Sequence record: PQ416618.1
DNA: 64,000 bases
Source: Escherichia phage vB_VIPECOMC06
Reading direction: 5' to 3' (one strand)
Shown here: one piece after another, positions 1-47,364 of the stretch
How positions within the stretch are numbered: the first letter of the stretch is position 1
Layout: each line of letters begins with the position of its first letter
The notes under the pieces: model-generated
The model's input: only the letters and a program-made list of their open reading frames with translations
Told to the model about the DNA's origin: nothing
Database searches by the model: none
Position numbers and translations under genes: made by a program

Positions 1-1
1 T

Positions 2-256
2 CCTGTAATTATTGCACAAATTGGCAAAACTCAAAAATGGTTTTATACTGTAGCTGAGTATGAAGAAGCTAAAGATACACTGCCTAAGCATAGTATTCGA
101 TACATCAAGGGATTGGGCTCCCTTGAAAAGTCAGAATATCGTGAAATGATTCAGAACCCTGTGTACGACGTAGTTAAACTTCCTGAAAATTGGAAAGAAC
201 TCTTTGAAATGTTGTTGGGTGATGATTCAGAACTTCGTAAAGAATGGATGTCCTAA
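2..256 (+). CDS. 39: DNA topoisomerase II large subunit, C-terminal end (5' truncated by window edge)
   Basis: Open frame from window start ending ...IRYIKGLGSLEKSEYREMIQNPVYDVVKLPENWKELFEML..KEWMS*, matching the C-terminus of the T4 topo II large subunit (gp39/gp60) as I recall it. Confidence 0.85.
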   Translation, partial: PVIIAQIGKTQKWFYTVAEYEEAKDTLPKHSIRYIKGLGSLEKSEYREMIQNPVYDVVKLPENWKELFEMLLGDDSELRKEWMS

Positions 257-298
257 GCTCCTTCTGGAGCTTCATTTTAATTTTAATAAGGCTTAATT

Positions 299-1399
299 AT
301 GAAAGTTATGTTTATCCCATCTCGTGCAGTCCCATTTAATCCTGACCGTGTACAAGGTGGTCTTGAAGCAGTACATTTAAATGTGTTGAAATATCTTGTG
401 TCCATCGGTGCTGATATTGATTATATCGGCTTTGATAATGACACGTTTGGTGACTGGAAAGTTACACACCATCCTGTTGGTCATCTGACTAAATTTAGCC
501 TAGGTATGAGTTATACTATGGCTCGTAAGATTGTTGAACTAGCCGGCATTCATGAATACGATTTTGTTGTTACTATGGAACCGACTAAACTAACCGTTCA
601 GGCAATTAAAGACGCAGGTCTCTCTAAAGTTCATAAGAATTTTATGGCAACACCATTTGAACCGGTATCTCGTGGCATTGTTCAAATTTGGGACCAGACT
701 ATTCAAATTCATAAGAATGGCGGCAAGAGTTATGCTCCTACTAAAGCCTTCCGTGAATTTGAACGTAAATATTGTTATATGACTTCAGGTCTGACTGACA
801 AAATTGATTATGATTATTGGCGAGCAAATCCGTTGTTTGAAGCCGAAGATTATCCGGTTATTTGTTTGAATGAGAAACCTGAAGTTCTTCCGGCGACTGA
901 TCTGATTATTAGTGCACAACGTTATGACACTAAAATGCGTCGTACTGATGTTGCTCTTGAAGCGATTAAAGCACTAGGCGAAAATGGTGTAGGATACTGT
1001 CCTAGTAAATGGGCACCACCAGCTAAATATCCTGTTATTATTGATGCTCCACACAGTGAAATCATGGAACGTCTTAAAACAGCTAAAGCGCTTATTAATA
1101 CATGTCCTGACACAGGTACGGTAGAGAATAGTTCTATTGAAGCCATCTCTAAAGGTGTCCCTGTAATCCAGTTAGTTTTTAAGGATTATCCTCATGCGAC
1201 ATTCGAATACGACCCAGATACTGTGCGTGTAGAAATTGATTCCTCTACTCCTAAGAAAGAAGTAGTTGCGCTTTACACAAAAGCTGTATTAGAATTCACT
1301 GACACATACGAAGCTCGAGTTAAACGTGCTGAAGCAGTATGGAAGAAGTATAACCGAGATGCAGTTGTTGCGATGTGGGATAAAATCTTCACAGCGTAA
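299..1399 (+). CDS. GT-B fold glycosyltransferase (GT4-like); candidate DNA sugar-modification enzyme
   Basis: 366 aa; N-terminal MKVMFIPS...GGLEAVHLNVLKYLVSIGADIDYIGF and C-terminal ENSSIEAISKGVPVIQ resemble GT4 donor/acceptor-binding motifs; AT-rich phage-like codon usage; sits between gene 39 and rIIA. Confidence 0.6.
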   Translation: MKVMFIPSRAVPFNPDRVQGGLEAVHLNVLKYLVSIGADIDYIGFDNDTFGDWKVTHHPVGHLTKFSLGMSYTMARKIVELAGIHEYDFVVTMEPTKLTVQAIKDAGLSKVHKNFMATPFEPVSRGIVQIWDQTIQIHKNGGKSYAPTKAFREFERKYCYMTSGLTDKIDYDYWRANPLFEAEDYPVICLNEKPEVLPATDLIISAQRYDTKMRRTDVALEAIKALGENGVGYCPSKWAPPAKYPVIIDAPHSEIMERLKTAKALINTCPDTGTVENSSIEAISKGVPVIQLVFKDYPHATFEYDPDTVRVEIDSSTPKKEVVALYTKAVLEFTDTYEARVKRAEAVWKKYNRDAVVAMWDKIFTA

Positions 1400-1410
1400 A
1401 TCCTGAATTG

Positions 1411-1471
1411 CCTGGGGCACTATTACACATAAGATGATAGATTATATGGTCTTTAGTAATAGTGCCCTAGG
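1411..1471 (+). other. long RNA hairpin (16-bp stem, 29-nt loop) between the glycosyltransferase gene and rIIA.1
   Basis: CCTGGGGCACTATTAC (1411-1426) pairs with GTAATAGTGCCCTAGG (1456-1471), with one G-U pair. Confidence 0.6.
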
Positions 1472-1491
1472 AATCTACTGAAGAGAATATT

Positions 1492-1692
1492 ATGAGAACA
1501 TATAACGTGGACTTGGAACTTTTTGATAAAGCAGTGCTCCGGGAATTCCGGCTTATCCAAAGATTTTTTGATATCGAGTCAGCAGAGTTCTTTAAAGAAC
1601 GCTTTAAAGAAATTCGATATAAAATACAAACCGATACAGCTACTAAAGAAGAACTTCTTGAAGTAGCAGAAATTTTTAAACGTAACTTGTGA
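1492..1692 (+). CDS. small early protein (rIIA.1-like by position)
   Basis: 66-aa ORF directly upstream of rIIA with a purine-rich region upstream of the ATG. Confidence 0.5.
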   Translation: MRTYNVDLELFDKAVLREFRLIQRFFDIESAEFFKERFKEIRYKIQTDTATKEELLEVAEIFKRNL

Positions 1693-1704
1693 TGAGAGAA
1701 AAAT

Positions 1705-3918
1705 ATGATTATTGAAACGGCTAAAGAAACGATTATTGGTTCAGGTGGTAAGAGCACAGCATTTACTATTCAAGGCAATAGCAAAGTTTATAAGATTTTG
1801 TCTAATGACCTTTATACAAACAAAGAATTGGCTTGTGTACGTGAATTAATCACAAACTGTATCGATGGTCAAATTCTTAATGGTTGCACTGATAAGTTTA
1901 TTGTTCAGGCTCCAGGTCGTTTAGACCCACGTTTTGTAGTTCGAGACTTTGGTCCTGGTATGAGTGATTTCACCATTCGAGGTAATGACGAAGAGCCAGG
2001 AATCTATAACTCATATTTTGCTTCAACTAAAACATCGAGTAACGATTTCATTGGTGGATTCGGACTCGGCTCTAAAGCTCCACTAGCATATACCGATACG
2101 TTTAACCTTACGTCTTATCACAATGGTGAAGTTCGTGGTTATGTAATTTATCAAGATGACACAGGTCCACAGATTAAGCCAACCTTCGTAGATAAGATGG
2201 GTCCTGATGATCGGACCGGCGTTGAAGTAGTTGTGCCTGTTAACCCAGAAGATTTTGAAAAGTTCGCATCTGAAATTGCATATGTTATGCGTCCTCTCGG
2301 TGATATTGCAGAAGTTCGTGGTGTTAAAGATATCAAATACTTCCCGGAATTCGATGATGTTTATTTAGCCAAGGAAGCTCCATGGGGTGAACGTGGTAAT
2401 ATCATGGCTGTTTATGGTGGTATTGTATATCCAATCGGAAGTGTTATTAAAGAACAAACATGGATGATGACGCGATGCACTACAGCTTATATTAAATTCC
2501 CTATGGGTGAACTAGATGTAGCCCCGTCTCGTGAAGCATTGTCATTTGATAAACGTACAGTAGCAAATATCCATAAACGCGTTGCAGAAATCGATGCTAA
2601 ATTGTTCGCTGAAGATTCTAAGAAATGGATTGATTGTAAATACCCACGTCATGTGTTCCGTGAAATTGATTCTCTTGGCTATACCGCTCGCAAATACATG
2701 GAAAAGGCTGGGTCTAATATTGAATCACTGAAATACTCTAAAGAACAACTAACTTATTCCGAGTTGTACAAACGTTTTAAAATGGGACCTGAGTGGTGTA
2801 ATCTTGGCGTCGTATACGATATCGTTGAATCCCCTCGTCTTCGTCGTATTCGTGAAAGCGGTAGCTCAACGGCAACCATTTCAATTAACAGTCTGATTGG
2901 CATTAACATTAAAAATGTTGAAATTGTTATTGACGACGTTAAGGGACGCGTTCCATTAATGCGAGCTCTTAATTCAATTGAAATGTCTAAAGACGAGGTT
3001 AAATTAACCGGTAAAGTTCCACGCGGTTTTGGTAAAAGCGTACTATTCGTTGACCCTACAGACGAAGATGCAATGAAACTTCTGGAACGCCTTAAAGTTA
3101 TCTTTGATGGCGACAACATTAACATGTACAAGACTTCAGAGCTTTTACAAATCGTTAAGCCATGGATTGAAGTCAAGAAACGGACTAATGAGCCTCGTCC
3201 TAAATCCCCGAGTGCTCATCGATTCTTTAAGAATGAAAACGATGTTTGGGTATCAGAAGACCTCTTTATTCCGGCAAGTGAAGCAGATGAAATCCAAGGT
3301 TATGCTATAGTTCGTAATCGTTCTAATGCTGAATGTCTTGACGCAGATAAAGGTTGGTTGAACTATGACTCCAATTTCTTGACTCGTATTGCTGATTTGT
3401 CAGGTATTAAAGAGTTCACTGTAGTCCGTCCACAGATTGCTAAGAAAGTTCGTAAACTTGGTGAAGTAGAATGCTTGTTCGAAAAATCAATTAATGACTA
3501 TATTACGCTAATTGATAAAGTGGATTATGATGAGTATGTATCACCAAGTCGTAGAGCACAGCCTTATTTGAATCATATTACTCGTAATGAAGAGCTTAAC
3601 TTCCTTAGTAAATATTTTAGCTCTAAGAACAAAGAAATCAGTAAAGATTTTGCAAAACTTTCAACAGTAAATAATCGTTGGGGTTGGAATCGATTCTCAG
3701 GTGCTACTAACAGAGATCTGAATAAGAAGTTAGAATTGTGTGCTAAAATTTTCGATAAGCTTAAAGATAATGCTTACGATAATGATGATAAAATGGTTAT
3801 TGAATTTGAAACCAATTATCATATTGTGTCAGAATACATGGGACGACGTGGTACTCTTTCTAAAGAACAGGTCGCTCAAATCGTTAAATTCATGAAGGCC
3901 GTGGAAGCGGCCAAATAA
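1705..3918 (+). CDS. rIIA: rIIA membrane-associated protein (rapid lysis / lysis inhibition; GHKL ATPase-like N-terminus)
   Basis: 737 aa; N-terminus MIIETAKETIIGSGGKSTAF...RELITNCIDGQ matches the T4 rIIA pattern. Confidence 0.9.
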   Translation: MIIETAKETIIGSGGKSTAFTIQGNSKVYKILSNDLYTNKELACVRELITNCIDGQILNGCTDKFIVQAPGRLDPRFVVRDFGPGMSDFTIRGNDEEPGIYNSYFASTKTSSNDFIGGFGLGSKAPLAYTDTFNLTSYHNGEVRGYVIYQDDTGPQIKPTFVDKMGPDDRTGVEVVVPVNPEDFEKFASEIAYVMRPLGDIAEVRGVKDIKYFPEFDDVYLAKEAPWGERGNIMAVYGGIVYPIGSVIKEQTWMMTRCTTAYIKFPMGELDVAPSREALSFDKRTVANIHKRVAEIDAKLFAEDSKKWIDCKYPRHVFREIDSLGYTARKYMEKAGSNIESLKYSKEQLTYSELYKRFKMGPEWCNLGVVYDIVESPRLRRIRESGSSTATISINSLIGINIKNVEIVIDDVKGRVPLMRALNSIEMSKDEVKLTGKVPRGFGKSVLFVDPTDEDAMKLLERLKVIFDGDNINMYKTSELLQIVKPWIEVKKRTNEPRPKSPSAHRFFKNENDVWVSEDLFIPASEADEIQGYAIVRNRSNAECLDADKGWLNYDSNFLTRIADLSGIKEFTVVRPQIAKKVRKLGEVECLFEKSINDYITLIDKVDYDEYVSPSRRAQPYLNHITRNEELNFLSKYFSSKNKEISKDFAKLSTVNNRWGWNRFSGATNRDLNKKLELCAKIFDKLKDNAYDNDDKMVIEFETNYHIVSEYMGRRGTLSKEQVAQIVKFMKAVEAAK

Positions 3919-3927
3919 GGAAACATT

Positions 3928-4863
3928 ATGTACAATATCAAATGCTTGTCCCAAGAAGAACAGTTAGAAGCTTACGACCTGGTCAAATCAGGCAAATGGA
4001 CCCGTAAAGAAATTGCCGATTACTTCGACATTTCAACAGATACTCTTCGTAAGATTGTTAAGAATTTTAAAGCTGAAGAGAAAGCAGCTGAATTTGAAGA
4101 CGAAGAACAGGTCCCAGAAAATAATGAACCTATTATTACAGGTCATCGTCCAGAAATCGTATGGAACGCGTCATCTAAATTTATTTCAATCATTGAAGGA
4201 CGCGTAGCATACAATGCGACCCCATCAAGTCATGCAAATTTTGAAGAAATTAAAGCTAATTTGGTCGCAGGAAACCTTAGTAAAGCTGTCGAACTTATTA
4301 ACATCAAGAAAGCTATTAGTAAGTTTGTTGACGGTAATGTTGTTATTGAAGGTGGTAGTTTATTTTATCAAGGTATAGAGATTCGTTCTGGCCTGGTTAA
4401 TCGTATTATTGATTCTATGGAAAAAGGCGAAGACTTTAAATTCTATCTGCCATTCCTTGAAAACCTGTTAGAAAACCCAAGCGAAAAAGCTGTACAACGT
4501 TTATTCGACTTCTTGGTTGCAAATGATATTGAAATCACTGAAGATGGGCATTTCTATGCATGGAAAGTAGTTCGTAAAGACTATTTAGATTGCTATAGCG
4601 GCACATTTGATAACTCGCCTGGTAAAATTGTTTCAATGCCTCGTACTCGTGTTAACGATGATGATACACAAACTTGTTCCCGTGGTCTACATGTTTGTGC
4701 TAAATCATATATTCGTTACTTTGGTTCTAGCTCAGATAAAGTTGTTAAGGTTAAAGTTCATCCACGTGATGTTGTATCTATCCCAGTTGACTATGGTGAT
4801 GCTAAGATGCGTACTTGTCGTTATGAAGTAATTTCAGACGTTACTGAATTATTTGCAGAATAA
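3928..4863 (+). CDS. rIIB: rIIB protein
   Basis: 311 aa; MYNIKCL... start and conserved C-terminal block ...PRTRVNDDDTQTCSRGLHVC.KSYIR.FGSS match T4 rIIB. Confidence 0.92.
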   Translation: MYNIKCLSQEEQLEAYDLVKSGKWTRKEIADYFDISTDTLRKIVKNFKAEEKAAEFEDEEQVPENNEPIITGHRPEIVWNASSKFISIIEGRVAYNATPSSHANFEEIKANLVAGNLSKAVELINIKKAISKFVDGNVVIEGGSLFYQGIEIRSGLVNRIIDSMEKGEDFKFYLPFLENLLENPSEKAVQRLFDFLVANDIEITEDGHFYAWKVVRKDYLDCYSGTFDNSPGKIVSMPRTRVNDDDTQTCSRGLHVCAKSYIRYFGSSSDKVVKVKVHPRDVVSIPVDYGDAKMRTCRYEVISDVTELFAE

Positions 4864-4868
4864 TAATT

Positions 4869-4890
4869 GGGGACTTCGGTCCCCTTTTTT
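4869..4890 (+). terminator. intrinsic terminator after rIIB
   Basis: GGGGACTTCGGTCCCC hairpin with UUCG loop followed by TTTTTT. Confidence 0.8.
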
Positions 4891-4904
4891 CTTTAGGGGT
4901 AATT

Positions 4905-5192
4905 ATGATTCATCCATTTGACGTATCAGAATCCAAAATTGCTAATCTTCGTGGTCATCATAAGTGTAAATCAGTTTATTGTGCTAAATTGGTAAAACAT
5001 CCTGGTGATGCACACTACGGCTGGTTAGAATGCGACGAAGTTGTTATTGAAATTCCGCCTGTAGATGCAGAATATCTTGAAGAAGGTGACCGCATTTATT
5101 TTGGCGAACTACACATTAGAGGTATCTATGGTAAAGACGAACTTGGGACTGTTGAGACTGAAGAATCTTCCGACATTTATCCTGTCGAATGA
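4905..5192 (+). CDS. hypothetical protein (overlaps the denB start in another frame)
   Basis: 95-aa ORF with AGGGG Shine-Dalgarno 6 nt upstream; follows the rIIB terminator. Confidence 0.45.
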   Translation: MIHPFDVSESKIANLRGHHKCKSVYCAKLVKHPGDAHYGWLECDEVVIEIPPVDAEYLEEGDRIYFGELHIRGIYGKDELGTVETEESSDIYPVE

Positions 5193-5685
5193 GTTTTTGA
5201 CTAGTGAAATGAAGGTGAAGATTGCTGACACTGCTCGGTATTCCCTGAGCCAAAATCCTGGCCAAAACAAAGAAGATGTAGTTCGACGTTGTAAGGTTGC
5301 GGTCTTTGCAGAGTATGTAGTAGCAAATTGGCTAGACGGGTATGTTAATAAAGGTATTGAAGACGTAGAAGACCCGTACACGTATGCATGGGACGTGTTA
5401 GCCCATCCCAAGTATTGTGGAATTCGTGTAGAAGTCAAGACGCACCAGATAGATTCTAAATGGATTTCGGTTACCACAGGATACAGTGGTGATTATCCGG
5501 GTGGTAATGGAATCAATATAGGGCCCTTCTTGAACCATCGAGTCGCAGATTGCATTATTATATTAGATGTCAAAGAAACCTCACCTGACGTCTTCTCTTA
5601 TTCTATAAAGTTCGTGGGAGACCATGAAGACCTAAAGAAAATCGTCCGCAAGAGCAACTACAACGGGTGGTATCTTCAACTTTAA
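5128..5685 (+). CDS. denB: endonuclease IV (dC-specific ssDNA endonuclease), DenB-like
   Basis: ATG at 5128 with AGAGG SD gives 185 aa (T4 DenB length from memory) and places a Ser at residue 176, the residue reported as critical in T4 EndoIV; position downstream of rIIB fits. Confidence 0.5.
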   Translation: MVKTNLGLLRLKNLPTFILSNEFLTSEMKVKIADTARYSLSQNPGQNKEDVVRRCKVAVFAEYVVANWLDGYVNKGIEDVEDPYTYAWDVLAHPKYCGIRVEVKTHQIDSKWISVTTGYSGDYPGGNGINIGPFLNHRVADCIIILDVKETSPDVFSYSIKFVGDHEDLKKIVRKSNYNGWYLQL

Positions 5686-5696
5686 TTTCATAAAGT

Positions 5697-5730
5697 GTTT
5701 ACAACTAAGTAGGACTATGATATAGTAGTC
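5697..5730 (+). promoter_or_regulatory. T4-type early promoter with palindrome around -10
   Basis: GTTTACaactaagTAGGACTAtgaTATAGTAGTCCTAtc. Confidence 0.6.
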
Positions 5731-5752
5731 CTATCTAAAAGAGGATAACATC

Positions 5753-6016
5753 ATGAAATTTAAATTTTTCTACGCAAAACATAAAGTAACAGGCGAATTT
5801 GTTTCAATGTACAACACTGCAGATGACGAAGGGATGATTTATACCCATTTGGGACTATCTCATTGGGACTCGGACGTGCCTTATATGTCATCTGAAGCCG
5901 AAATAACTCGTCTGGTTAATGGACATATGAACGACCATTTTGGTGTTATTCTTTCTAAAGACCTTAAAGAGGTTATCAACAAAGGATATATGGAACTCGC
6001 GGAAGTTGAGATATGA
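5753..6016 (+). CDS. hypothetical early protein
   Basis: 87-aa ORF preceded by an early promoter and AGAGGA SD. Confidence 0.55.
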   Translation: MKFKFFYAKHKVTGEFVSMYNTADDEGMIYTHLGLSHWDSDVPYMSSEAEITRLVNGHMNDHFGVILSKDLKEVINKGYMELAEVEI

Positions 6017-6205: not shown

Positions 6206-6243
6206 GTTTACAACAAGGTAGGATTATGGTATAGTAGTCCTAC
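6206..6243 (+). promoter_or_regulatory. T4-type early promoter with palindrome around -10
   Basis: GTTTACaacaagGTAGGAttatggTATAGTAGTCCTAC. Confidence 0.6.
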
Positions 6244-7330: not shown

Positions 7331-8656
7331 ATGCAATTGAATTCTCGTAATCTAAAAAGTATTATTGATAACGAAGCCTTAGCATATGCGATGTACACCG
7401 TTGAAAACCGTGCAATCCCAAACATGATTGATGGATTTAAGCCGGTTCAACGTTTTGTGGTTCATCGTGCGTTAGATTTGGCTCGTGGTAATAAAGAAAA
7501 ATTTCATAAACTTGCGTCAATTGCAGGCGGTGTTGCAGATTTAGGTTATCATCATGGCGAATCTTCTGCACAAGATGCAGGTGCATTGATGGCTAACACA
7601 TGGAACAACAACTATCCACTGTTAGATGGCCAAGGCAACTTTGGTTCTCGAACAGTCCAAAAAGCTGCAGCATCTCGTTATATTTTTGCTCGTGTAAGTA
7701 AAAATTTCTATAACGTATATAAAGATACTGAATATGCTCCAGCTCATGAAGATAAAGAACACATTCCACCAAAATTCTATCTTCCTATTATTCCGACAGT
7801 TCTTTTGAATGGTGTCTCTGGTATTGCAACCGGTTACGCAACAAATATTCTGCCTCATAGTTTTAAAACAGTCAAAAAGGCTGTATTACAAGCTCTTCAA
7901 GGTAAAAATGTCACTAAGCCAAAAGTTGAATTCCCGGAATTCCGTGGTGAAGTACATGAAGTTGATGGGCGTTATGAGATTCACGGAACATATAAGTTCA
8001 CATCTCGCACTCAAATGCAGATAACTGAAATCCCATATAAATTCGACCGTGAAACGTATGTGAGTAAGGTTCTTGACCCGTTGGAAGACAAAGGTCTAAT
8101 CTCATGGGAAGATGATTGCGGTGAACACGGCTTTGGGTTTAAGGTGAAGTTCCGTAAAGAGTACTCGCTTCCTGATGATGAAGAGCTACGTCATGAAAAA
8201 ATCATGAAAGATTTTAGTCTCATCGAACGTCGTTCACAAAACATCACAGTGATTAATGAAAAGGGTAAATTAGCGGTCTATGATAACGTAGTGGACTTAA
8301 TCAAAGATTTTGTTGAAGTCCGTAAGACTTACGTTCAAAAACGTATTGACAACAAAATCCTTGAATCTGAAAAAGCATTTAAACTGGCTTTTGCTAAGGC
8401 ACACTTCATCAAAAAAGTTATTACAGGTGAAATTGTGATTCAGGGCAAGACTCGTAAAGCTTTGACTGAAGAGCTAGCACAAATCGAAATGTACAAAGAA
8501 CATGTCGATAAACTGGTAGGCCTTAACATCTTCCATATCACTTCCGACGAAGCACGTAAACTGGCAGAAGAAGCTAAAGCTAAGAAAGAAGAAAATGAGT
8601 ATTGGAAGTCTACCGATGTTGTGACAGAGTACACTAAAGACTTGGAGGCACTTTGA
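7331..8656 (+). CDS. 52: DNA topoisomerase II medium subunit (GyrA-like)
   Basis: 441 aa; MQLN.R.LKSIIDNEALAYAMYTVENRAIPNMIDGFKPVQRF... matches T4 gp52. Confidence 0.95.
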   Translation: MQLNSRNLKSIIDNEALAYAMYTVENRAIPNMIDGFKPVQRFVVHRALDLARGNKEKFHKLASIAGGVADLGYHHGESSAQDAGALMANTWNNNYPLLDGQGNFGSRTVQKAAASRYIFARVSKNFYNVYKDTEYAPAHEDKEHIPPKFYLPIIPTVLLNGVSGIATGYATNILPHSFKTVKKAVLQALQGKNVTKPKVEFPEFRGEVHEVDGRYEIHGTYKFTSRTQMQITEIPYKFDRETYVSKVLDPLEDKGLISWEDDCGEHGFGFKVKFRKEYSLPDDEELRHEKIMKDFSLIERRSQNITVINEKGKLAVYDNVVDLIKDFVEVRKTYVQKRIDNKILESEKAFKLAFAKAHFIKKVITGEIVIQGKTRKALTEELAQIEMYKEHVDKLVGLNIFHITSDEARKLAEEAKAKKEENEYWKSTDVVTEYTKDLEAL

Positions 8657-26219: not shown

Positions 26220-26258
26220 TTTACAACAAGATAGGGCTATGTTATAGTAGCCCTATCA
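26219..26258 (+). promoter_or_regulatory. T4-type early promoter with palindrome around -10
   Basis: GTTTACaacaaGATAGGGCTAtgtTATAGTAGCCCTATC. Confidence 0.6.
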
Positions 26259-34833: not shown

Positions 34834-34868
34834 TTTACAAACTCTCGGGAGCAGAGTATAATGCTCCT
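34833..34868 (+). promoter_or_regulatory. early promoter with palindrome flanking TATAAT
   Basis: GTTTACaaactctcgGGAGCAgagTATAATGCTCC. Confidence 0.6.
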
Positions 34869-36102
<1,234 letters not shown>

Positions 36103-40683: not shown

Positions 40684-40722
40684 GTTTACTTTGGTACAGG
40701 TTTTGTTATTATAGACCTGTAC
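40684..40722 (+). promoter_or_regulatory. T4-type early promoter with palindrome around -10
   Basis: GTTTACtttGGTACAGGttttgtTATTATagaCCTGTACC. Confidence 0.6.
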
Positions 40723-40753
40723 CAACAAACAACTTAAACATCTGGAGAATAAA

Positions 40754-47070: not shown

Positions 47071-47364
47071 ATGAAATCTATGCTTCGCTTTAATGGTCAA
47101 GAACTAGTAGTTGAAGATGTTATCCCAGCGGATGATGCTTTTAACGAAGCTGTGATTGACGAATTGAATCGAGTATTCCCAGGTGCATTCCATATTGCTA
47201 TGGAACCTCTTAAAAACTTTCGTGACCCTGAGCACACTGATCAAATTTTTGTCGGTGTAGTGACAGGTCATTTAGAAACAGAGGTACCAATGGTTGTATT
47301 AGTTAAATACTCTAAAGATGATACTCCATTCCGAGCACCAGCATTCCTTTCATTCCGTAAATAA
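47071..47364 (+). CDS. hypothetical protein
   Basis: ATG at 47071 with GAGGAAAA SD; the longer track ORF start overlaps an early promoter. Confidence 0.45.
   Translation: MKSMLRFNGQELVVEDVIPADDAFNEAVIDELNRVFPGAFHIAMEPLKNFRDPEHTDQIFVGVVTGHLETEVPMVVLVKYSKDDTPFRAPAFLSFRK

Follow-up and report, generated by a model that had tools for sequence, protein, structure and literature searches.

A long, genus-conserved hairpin between a putative DNA arabinosyltransferase gene and rIIA.1 in Mosigvirus phages, a possible mRNA decay barrier or segment boundary

Decay barriers and segment boundaries in polycistronic mRNA classically take the form of a very stable intercistronic hairpin that lacks a U-tract, and the decay-terminator stem-loop between pufBA and pufLMX of Rhodobacter capsulatus and the REP between malE and malF of E. 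coli are intercistronic elements of this kind. Long irregular intergenic hairpins also occur at the RNase III sites of T7 early mRNA (R0.3-R1.3) and at lambda sib, in transcripts made in E. coli. Among T4-type phages, PeSL cassettes are multi-copy and have beside the stem an early promoter, which in the T4 group reads TTTACW-N17-TAYWAT, and then a Shine-Dalgarno sequence (PMC2839356, PMC4122927), and hairpins on T4 early read-through transcripts hide the ribosome site of genes e, soc, 49 and I-TevI (PMC3014915).

The locus analysed here is a 92-nt untranslated spacer between a glycosyltransferase gene and rIIA.1, near the start of the window (by which the whole 64,000-nt stretch of DNA is meant); a hairpin takes up 61 of these 92 nucleotides. 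The window is from a Mosigvirus, that is, an RB69/HX01-like T4-type phage with E. coli or Shigella as host, and its first 4 kb are 97-98% identical to PNJ-6, HX01, RB69 and about 140 other records. The features of the locus, by position in the window, are as follows:

to 256, + strand: end of the fused topoisomerase gene 60plus39
255-272: small terminator-like tetraloop hairpin (AAGCTCC-TTCT-GGAGCTT and a T-rich tail), 3' of the topoisomerase gene
299-1399, + strand: GT-B glycosyltransferase gene, a 366-codon ORF with TAA at 1397-1399, homologue of RB69 ORF003c/gp3
1400-1410, + strand: 5' spacer of 11 nt, from stop codon to stem
1411-1426, + strand: left arm of the stem, CCTGGGGCACTATTAC
1427-1455, + strand: loop, 29 nt, AU-rich
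1431-1435 with 1449-1453: predicted inner helix of the loop, 5 bp
1437-1439 with 1445-1447: predicted apical helix of the loop, weak, 3 bp
1456-1471, + strand: right arm of the stem, GTAATAGTGCCCTAGG
1472-1491, + strand: 3' spacer of 20 nt, with the rIIA.1 Shine-Dalgarno sequence (GAAGAG, 1481-1486)
1492-1692, + strand: rIIA.1 (66 aa, ATG at 1492; PF24210 T4_RIIA1, E = 6.7e-30)
1705-3918, + strand: rIIA
3928-4863, + strand: rIIB
4869-4884: strong terminator-like tetraloop hairpin (GGGGAC-TTCG-GTCCCC+TTTTTT), 3' of rIIB

The transferase is 95-100% identical to Mosigvirus proteins, RB69ORF003c included; it matches phrog_8302, a PHROG of unknown function, and had no Pfam-A match. The RB69 ORF003c/gp3 protein has been proposed as the DNA arabinosyltransferase (PMC6024577) and, more recently, listed as a putative beta-arabinosyltransferase 2 acting on arabinosylated 5-hydroxycytosine (PMC13326640). 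GenBank names for the transferase are inconsistent, with 'hypothetical' or 'DNA alpha-glucosyltransferase' in many records versus beta-arabinosyltransferase in the recent literature. The tetraloop hairpins at 255-272 and 4869-4884 bracket the transferase-rII gene string and represent the ordinary terminator design of this phage. Within the string the hairpin sits in an intercistronic spacer of co-directional genes. Motif scans for sigma-70, T4-early, MotA and late promoters gave none near the hairpin or within about 1.3 kb upstream; the loop likewise held no early, middle or late promoter motif, and no promoter of their own was found for rIIA.1 and rIIA downstream of the hairpin. With no promoter between the transferase gene and rIIA.1, transcription of the hairpin is expected to occur within a polycistronic prereplicative mRNA that reads through from the transferase gene into rIIA.1, rIIA and rIIB. 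At the 3' end of rIIA (3768-3794), the arrangement AATGCTTAC-N11-TAAAAT is a possible MotA-type middle promoter for rIIB, with an imperfect match to the MotA box and similar to the rIIB middle promoter of T4.

A sequence-only reading of this DNA had placed a 16-bp stem with one G-U pair and a 29-nt loop between the stop at 1399 and the rIIA.1 start at 1492, and these coordinates proved exact. In the stem, 1411-1426 pairs with 1456-1471; the base is GC-rich, G1414-U1468 is the one wobble pair and the other 15 pairs are Watson-Crick. The hairpin measures 61 bases in total. Its minimum free energy as RNA is -35.1 kcal/mol (z = -5.75), which none of 200 shuffles equalled, and all 16 stem pairs had a probability of at least 0.99 when positions 1250-1650 were folded (400-nt context). 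Including the loop, the hairpin amounts to about 24 bp, 16 of them uninterrupted and the other 5+3 lying across a 4x2 internal loop. The apical 3-bp helix is probably not meaningful, since T1447C breaks it in phages moha and MM02. The description of the stem as unusually long was borne out as well: it is the longest in 64 kb, the second-longest having 13 bp, and stems of at least 16 bp were absent from 100 dinucleotide shuffles of the whole window. Of the 25,570 folds obtained by sliding an 80-nt frame along both strands (mean -12.4, sd 4.2), the hairpin was the most stable. It is thus real, statistically exceptional and, from the comparisons given below, conserved in the genus. In RB69 (AY303349), a fold as stable as the hairpin of the present phage was seen inside the nrdD coding sequence (47085-47164; -34.8 kcal/mol), where ACGGGACC...GGUCCCGU encloses a second helix.

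By its position and form the hairpin appears to belong to a familiar class, the intercistronic mRNA stem-loops. Like the decay terminators and REPs, it is a stable stem-loop without a U-tract in an untranslated polycistronic gap, 3' of a gene that it possibly protects; unlike them, it is single-copy (REPs number hundreds per genome), has no sequence relation to them and has a decay role that is putative. With the RNase III sites of T7 and lambda sib it shares a long irregular intergenic hairpin on one transcript in an E. coli host. The T7 sites, however, have an asymmetric internal loop at the cut site, as opposed to 16 uninterrupted pairs and a large loop here, and the T7 and sib sites show no homology to the hairpin, which has no Rfam match: the covariance models of Rfam 15 gave 0 matches at E <= 1 over positions 1-6000 on both strands. 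No tRNA or tmRNA genes were found. As in PeSL cassettes, an intergenic stem-loop borders a variable, genus-specific gene in a T4-type genome (PMC2839356, PMC4122927), but the present hairpin is single-copy, has no such promoter and leaves only 20 nt between stem and ATG. The GC-rich stem just after a stop codon recalls the intrinsic terminators and CUUCGG-type tetraloop hairpins of T4-like phages, whose stems are of 6-10 bp, with 4-nt loops and often a T tail. The T4 read-through hairpins are likewise large, stand ahead of a T4-type gene and occur only on transcripts begun upstream; they differ in having the Shine-Dalgarno sequence or AUG in the right arm and a late or middle promoter inside, neither of which is present here. 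The hairpin was not described in the literature and annotations searched, nor was RNA-end mapping for a Mosigvirus.

The 121 nt around the hairpin were found in 154 phage records at 95-99% identity, all of them Mosigvirus or unclassified close relatives, in a single place per genome in 152 of the 154 and with no case of hairpin loss or internal indel. The search gave no match in other phage genera, in a plasmid collection or among 5,426 E. coli genomes; the arm pattern was not found elsewhere in the 64-kb window, and in IMG/VR it occurred in two contigs only, both Mosigvirus. A metagenome scan added only four further copies, near-identical. Among 185,579 species genomes (GTDB) the arms had a single match, in a Prevotella contig (MAG contig CALGRN010000206.1, 2441-2502), where two convergent ORFs flank a hairpin with a perfect stem of 17 bp and a loop of 28 nt; the 11-nt arm sequence GGCACTATTAC is in common, but loop and flanks are unrelated and the match was judged to be chance. 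The hairpin belongs to the Mosigvirus-specific gene order topoisomerase - transferase - rIIA.1, because other genera differ at the locus. In some other T4-like genera a different ORF overlaps the rIIA.1 start and leaves no spacer. Tegunavirus has a classic terminator and then a MotA-type promoter ahead of rIIA, and at this locus the transferase gene is missing from the Tegunavirus phiR1-RT. The transferase homologues in Acinetobacter phages (42% identical) are neighbours of genes 40/41, and the hairpins 3' of them are ordinary UUCG tetraloops unrelated to this one. Shigella phage JK45 (MK962757), filed as Tequatrovirus with a Mosigvirus-like locus, has at 1200-2310 a 503-bp tandem duplication that spans the hairpin, running from ~410 nt before the end of the transferase gene through the complete 92-nt spacer to nucleotide 16 of rIIA.1, and making a second, truncated in-frame ORF; the duplication may be real or an assembly artefact.

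Variation was followed by reading 26 relatives, by counting alleles with exact-variant queries and by an alignment of 18 sequences. Conservation of the pairing in relatives, which had been proposed as a check on the hairpin, was found in all 26, each of which folds the same hairpin or carries only compatible changes. Energies of the variants read, all of which still fold, ranged from -24.6 to -35.3 kcal/mol. In the commonest allele, carried by most of the 154 related records, A1415 faces C1467, so that a mismatch divides the stem into 4 bp and 11 bp (-25 to -28.5 kcal/mol); the full 16-bp stem is a minority allele. The pair 1415/1467 was closed twice by separate routes: from the left arm by A to G (G1415, in this phage and in Shf125875), and from the right arm by C to U in five Danish phages (AV109, 114, 115, 116 and 118), in which U1467 comes together with C1468, so that the G-U pair 1414/1468 becomes G-C and the fold reaches -35.3 kcal/mol. 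Three further changes keep G-U pairing on the + (mRNA) strand only, namely C1418U (SQ17), C1465U (ESCO47 and EP32B) and A1439G in the inner helix. U1463C in RB69 breaks a pair, a one-sided change that favours the minus strand, and the RB69 stem has two mismatches (-24.6 kcal/mol); in five records the terminal pair is lost through G1471C, and ESCO47 has A1467 and is still mismatched there. Maximal stability is not required, because the commonest allele has the A-C mismatch and RB69 has two. In the AV phages the right arm reads CCTCAGG versus CCCTAGG (AV114 locus 383-613, equivalent to window 1462-1692), which removes a TAG in frame with rIIA.1; the annotated rIIA.1 is 10 codons longer there and begins at a GTG within the stem, and this extension is probably an annotation artefact.

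In the 18-sequence alignment, variable columns numbered 7 of 32 in the stem, 3 of 29 in the loop and 1 of 31 in the flanking spacer; four more variable loop positions in further relatives bring those of the loop to seven. None of the 20 columns of the 3' spacer (1472-1491) varied, and 1472-1480, as far as the further relatives covered it, was also unchanged. Position 1409, two bases 5' of the stem, is the sole variable base among the 31 non-hairpin spacer bases of the 18 aligned relatives, and it is tri-allelic, with T here and A or C, about equally common, in relatives. Haplotypes were mosaic across the whole 721 nt compared, and a recombination breakpoint at the hairpin was rejected, there being no special break in that place.

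Comparison of rates gave modest evidence of constraint. Compared with ESCO47, the relative furthest removed, 5 of 61 hairpin positions differ as against 41 of 204 third codon positions (Fisher p = 0.034); for the whole spacer the count is 6 of 92 against the same 41 of 204 (p = 0.003). In a subset not picked for hairpin variation, pi was 0.019 for the hairpin versus 0.040 for third positions, a difference short of significance (p = 0.22). Part of this signal may come from the adjacent ribosome site or from background conservation. Folding and covariation had both been suggested as checks. The fold held; pair counting in the 18 sequences (95.6% of cells paired, one pair changed on both sides) gave covariation measures equal to those of shuffle controls, the relatives being too alike (95-99% identical) to give the test power. 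Conservation of the hairpin is accordingly by sequence identity, with no covariation above shuffles.

The reading that we tentatively prefer, at somewhat less than even confidence, is that the stem-loop acts within a polycistronic early mRNA, either blocking RNA decay or marking a processing boundary; we infer that it affects RNA decay from its likeness to the decay barriers. With 11 nt separating it from the stop codon and 20 nt from the AUG, the stem could stay folded while both genes are translated. It may persist on translated mRNA because there would be room between the terminating and the initiating ribosome: by ribosome geometry, the 11-nt spacer puts the stem just beyond the footprint of a ribosome terminating at 1397-1399. 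An endonucleolytic cut in the AU-rich single-stranded flanks, or further downstream, would then leave a stable stem that could halt 3'-to-5' exonucleases (PNPase, RNase II) and so protect the arabinosyltransferase message. A cut in the 5' spacer would instead produce a 5'-terminal hairpin, which may shield the rII message from 5'-end-dependent RNase E. By either route the two halves of the transcript would acquire different lifetimes. An RNase III processing site or a translational or stability element between transferase and rII expression had been suggested from the sequence-only reading, an interpretation that was reasonable and is partly supported by the present results.

A serious alternative, though on the whole unlikely, is that the hairpin has no selected function and is a quasi-palindrome that remained when recombination brought the arabinosyltransferase gene to its place between the topoisomerase gene and rIIA.1. 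On this account it persists only since the genus is young and near-identical, and the changes that perfect the stem reflect template-switching between its arms. The hairpin does occur only in Mosigvirus and exactly at the gene insertion, while the corresponding place in other T4-like genera is taken either by a different ORF that directly adjoins rIIA.1, without a spacer, or by an ordinary terminator and a MotA promoter; the covariation result, the imperfect majority allele and a stem about as variable as the loop, both being more variable than the flanking spacer, point the same way. Quasipalindrome-templated mutation is known from T4 rIIB genetics, where its signature is a two-base change that copies the exact complement of the opposite arm. 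In precisely this manner, a pair of neighbouring bases changed together in the AV phages, so the perfecting changes could be templated mutations rather than the product of selection; the two closures of 1415/1467 could also be compensatory selection. Against an absence of function, the hairpin and the whole spacer are 2- to 3-fold less diverged than third codon positions, neither loss nor indel was seen among the 154 records, and a stem of 16 bp, found in 0 of 100 whole-window shuffles, still needs a cause for its origin.

Cleavage of the stem by host RNase III, parting the arabinosyltransferase message from the rII message, is decidedly unlikely, and here the earlier proposal agrees with the geometry but gained no positive support from the results. 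An RNase III substrate is expected to have about two turns of mostly continuous double-stranded RNA; in this phage the 16 uninterrupted pairs and the 5+3 across the 4x2 internal loop come to ~24 bp, which is in the size range of such substrates, and the phage has E. coli or Shigella as host. In most relatives, however, the stem is 11 bp, an A-C mismatch and 4 bp, with two interruptions in RB69; a review of T4 post-transcriptional control names RNase E, RNase G, RNase LS, RegB and exonucleases and never RNase III, and the hairpin has no Rfam match. Were RNase III to act, a double cut would more likely remove the protective stem and destabilise the upstream message, as in retroregulation of the lambda sib type, than stabilise it. 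A related proposal, to which we would give quite a small chance, is a dedicated post-transcriptional switch peculiar to Mosigvirus, such as an RNase III retroregulator of the sib kind or a phage-protein operator, that would govern how much of the second-step DNA arabinosyltransferase is made, or when, relative to rII.

The statement that the hairpin is unlikely to be a simple intrinsic terminator was borne out. The 8 nt 3' of the stem on the + strand are AAUCUACU (3 U of 8) and the 8 nt beyond it on the minus strand CAAUUCAG (2 U of 8), so that neither strand has a U-tract; the loop is 29 nt versus the ~3-8 nt expected of an intrinsic terminator, and a terminator scan reported no site at the hairpin. 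Real terminator-like sites in the window are short tetraloops with T tails, a quite different design. The same observations make it very improbable that the hairpin is a transcriptional pause site or weak factor-independent attenuator that keeps rII transcription below that of the arabinosyltransferase gene, despite a very stable stem with a GC-rich base at a gene end and, in a related genus, a true terminator at the corresponding point ahead of rIIA. Efficient termination would, moreover, silence rIIA.1 and rIIA, because neither has its own promoter downstream.

An element acting as DNA or linked to a promoter (a promoter in the loop, a PeSL- or attC-like recombination or cassette site, a miniature transposable element or a protein-binding palindrome) is extremely unlikely. 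Early promoters in this phage have the form GTTTACA-N17-TATAGT and several are set, around the -10 box, in inverted repeats of 8-12 bp, with an RB69 example of 13 bp; the loop contains TGATAGATT, which resembles an extended -10, and the hairpin stands at the edge of a genus-specific gene insertion. There is, on the other hand, no -35 box of the GTTTAC or TTGACA type, and by our estimate chance alone would supply about 240 copies of TGNTANNNT in 64 kb. A by-eye promoter match, TTGCCT-N16-TAAGAT, scored 8 of 12 and was rejected, its TTG (1408-1410), the sole one available, being TCG or TAG in relatives. A repeat family or mobile element of the REP or MITE type was likewise rejected: the hairpin is essentially single-copy wherever it occurs and had no match in other phages, plasmids or E. 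coli genomes, and the flanking direct repeat AATC(TA)CTGAA, considered as a target-site duplication, was matched by 438 of 5000 shuffles and 661 of 9128 natural pairs and is not significant. The integron attC core motifs RYYYAAC and GTTRRRY are absent from the two arms, and a replication origin was dismissed, T4 oriA being near soc and not rII.

The promoter-in-hairpin arrangement was recorded in its own right. Early promoters of the form GTTTAC(A/T)-N16/17-TAT(A/T)(A/G)T lie within 8-13-bp inverted repeats, the left arm in the promoter spacer and the right arm after the -10 box, at 5698-5733, 6207-6242, 26220-26255, 34834-34870 and 40685-40725 on the + strand of the window. In RB69 (AY303349) a site of this type at 7375-7454 carries the downstream Shine-Dalgarno sequence in its right arm. 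This looks like a recurrent design, similar to PeSLs or to T4 gene e, in which read-through transcripts would fold and promoter-initiated ones would not.

Translational control of rIIA.1, by a repressor operator or by an insulator that keeps the ribosome site unpaired, is barely probable: the stem ends at -21 from the AUG, by inference the edge of the 30S footprint, the 20 nt 3' of the stem are invariant and T4-type phages do use hairpin operators (for example at gene 43), but the Shine-Dalgarno sequence and AUG are outside the stem, the ribosome site itself explains the invariant 20 nt, and by-eye comparison found no motif in common with known RegA or gp43 operators. Occlusion in particular, as had been implied by the suggestion of a translational element, is unlikely with a stem that ends 9 nt before the Shine-Dalgarno sequence (1481-1486) and 20 nt before the AUG at 1492, and a hairpin hiding the ribosome site was rejected for this placement and for want of an internal promoter. 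A stimulator of readthrough or frameshifting was also rejected, there being no slippery heptamer 5' of the stem and readthrough adding only 10 codons. A small ORF of 15 codons (1434-1481, MIDYMVFSNSALGIY) starts with an ATG in the loop and has its TGA directly before the rIIA.1 Shine-Dalgarno sequence; as a gene it was discarded, since at least 9 of 11 observed substitutions alter the amino acid.

Arabinosyltransferases of the RB69 gp3 type help to make the arabinosylated cytosines that shield the phage from host nucleases (PMC6024577, PMC13326640). Whichever reading holds, the hairpin is a small local feature and not a new kind of system. If it is functionless, it would be a clean natural case of a quasi-palindrome 'perfected' in two lineages, and if the switch reading were true, control of DNA hypermodification would be tied to host RNase status. 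If, as in the preferred reading, the hairpin sets the lifetime of the arabinosyltransferase message or uncouples rII from it, it would be a simple handle on the amount of a DNA modification enzyme, and may offer a compact, portable insulator for the engineering of T4-type therapeutic phages.
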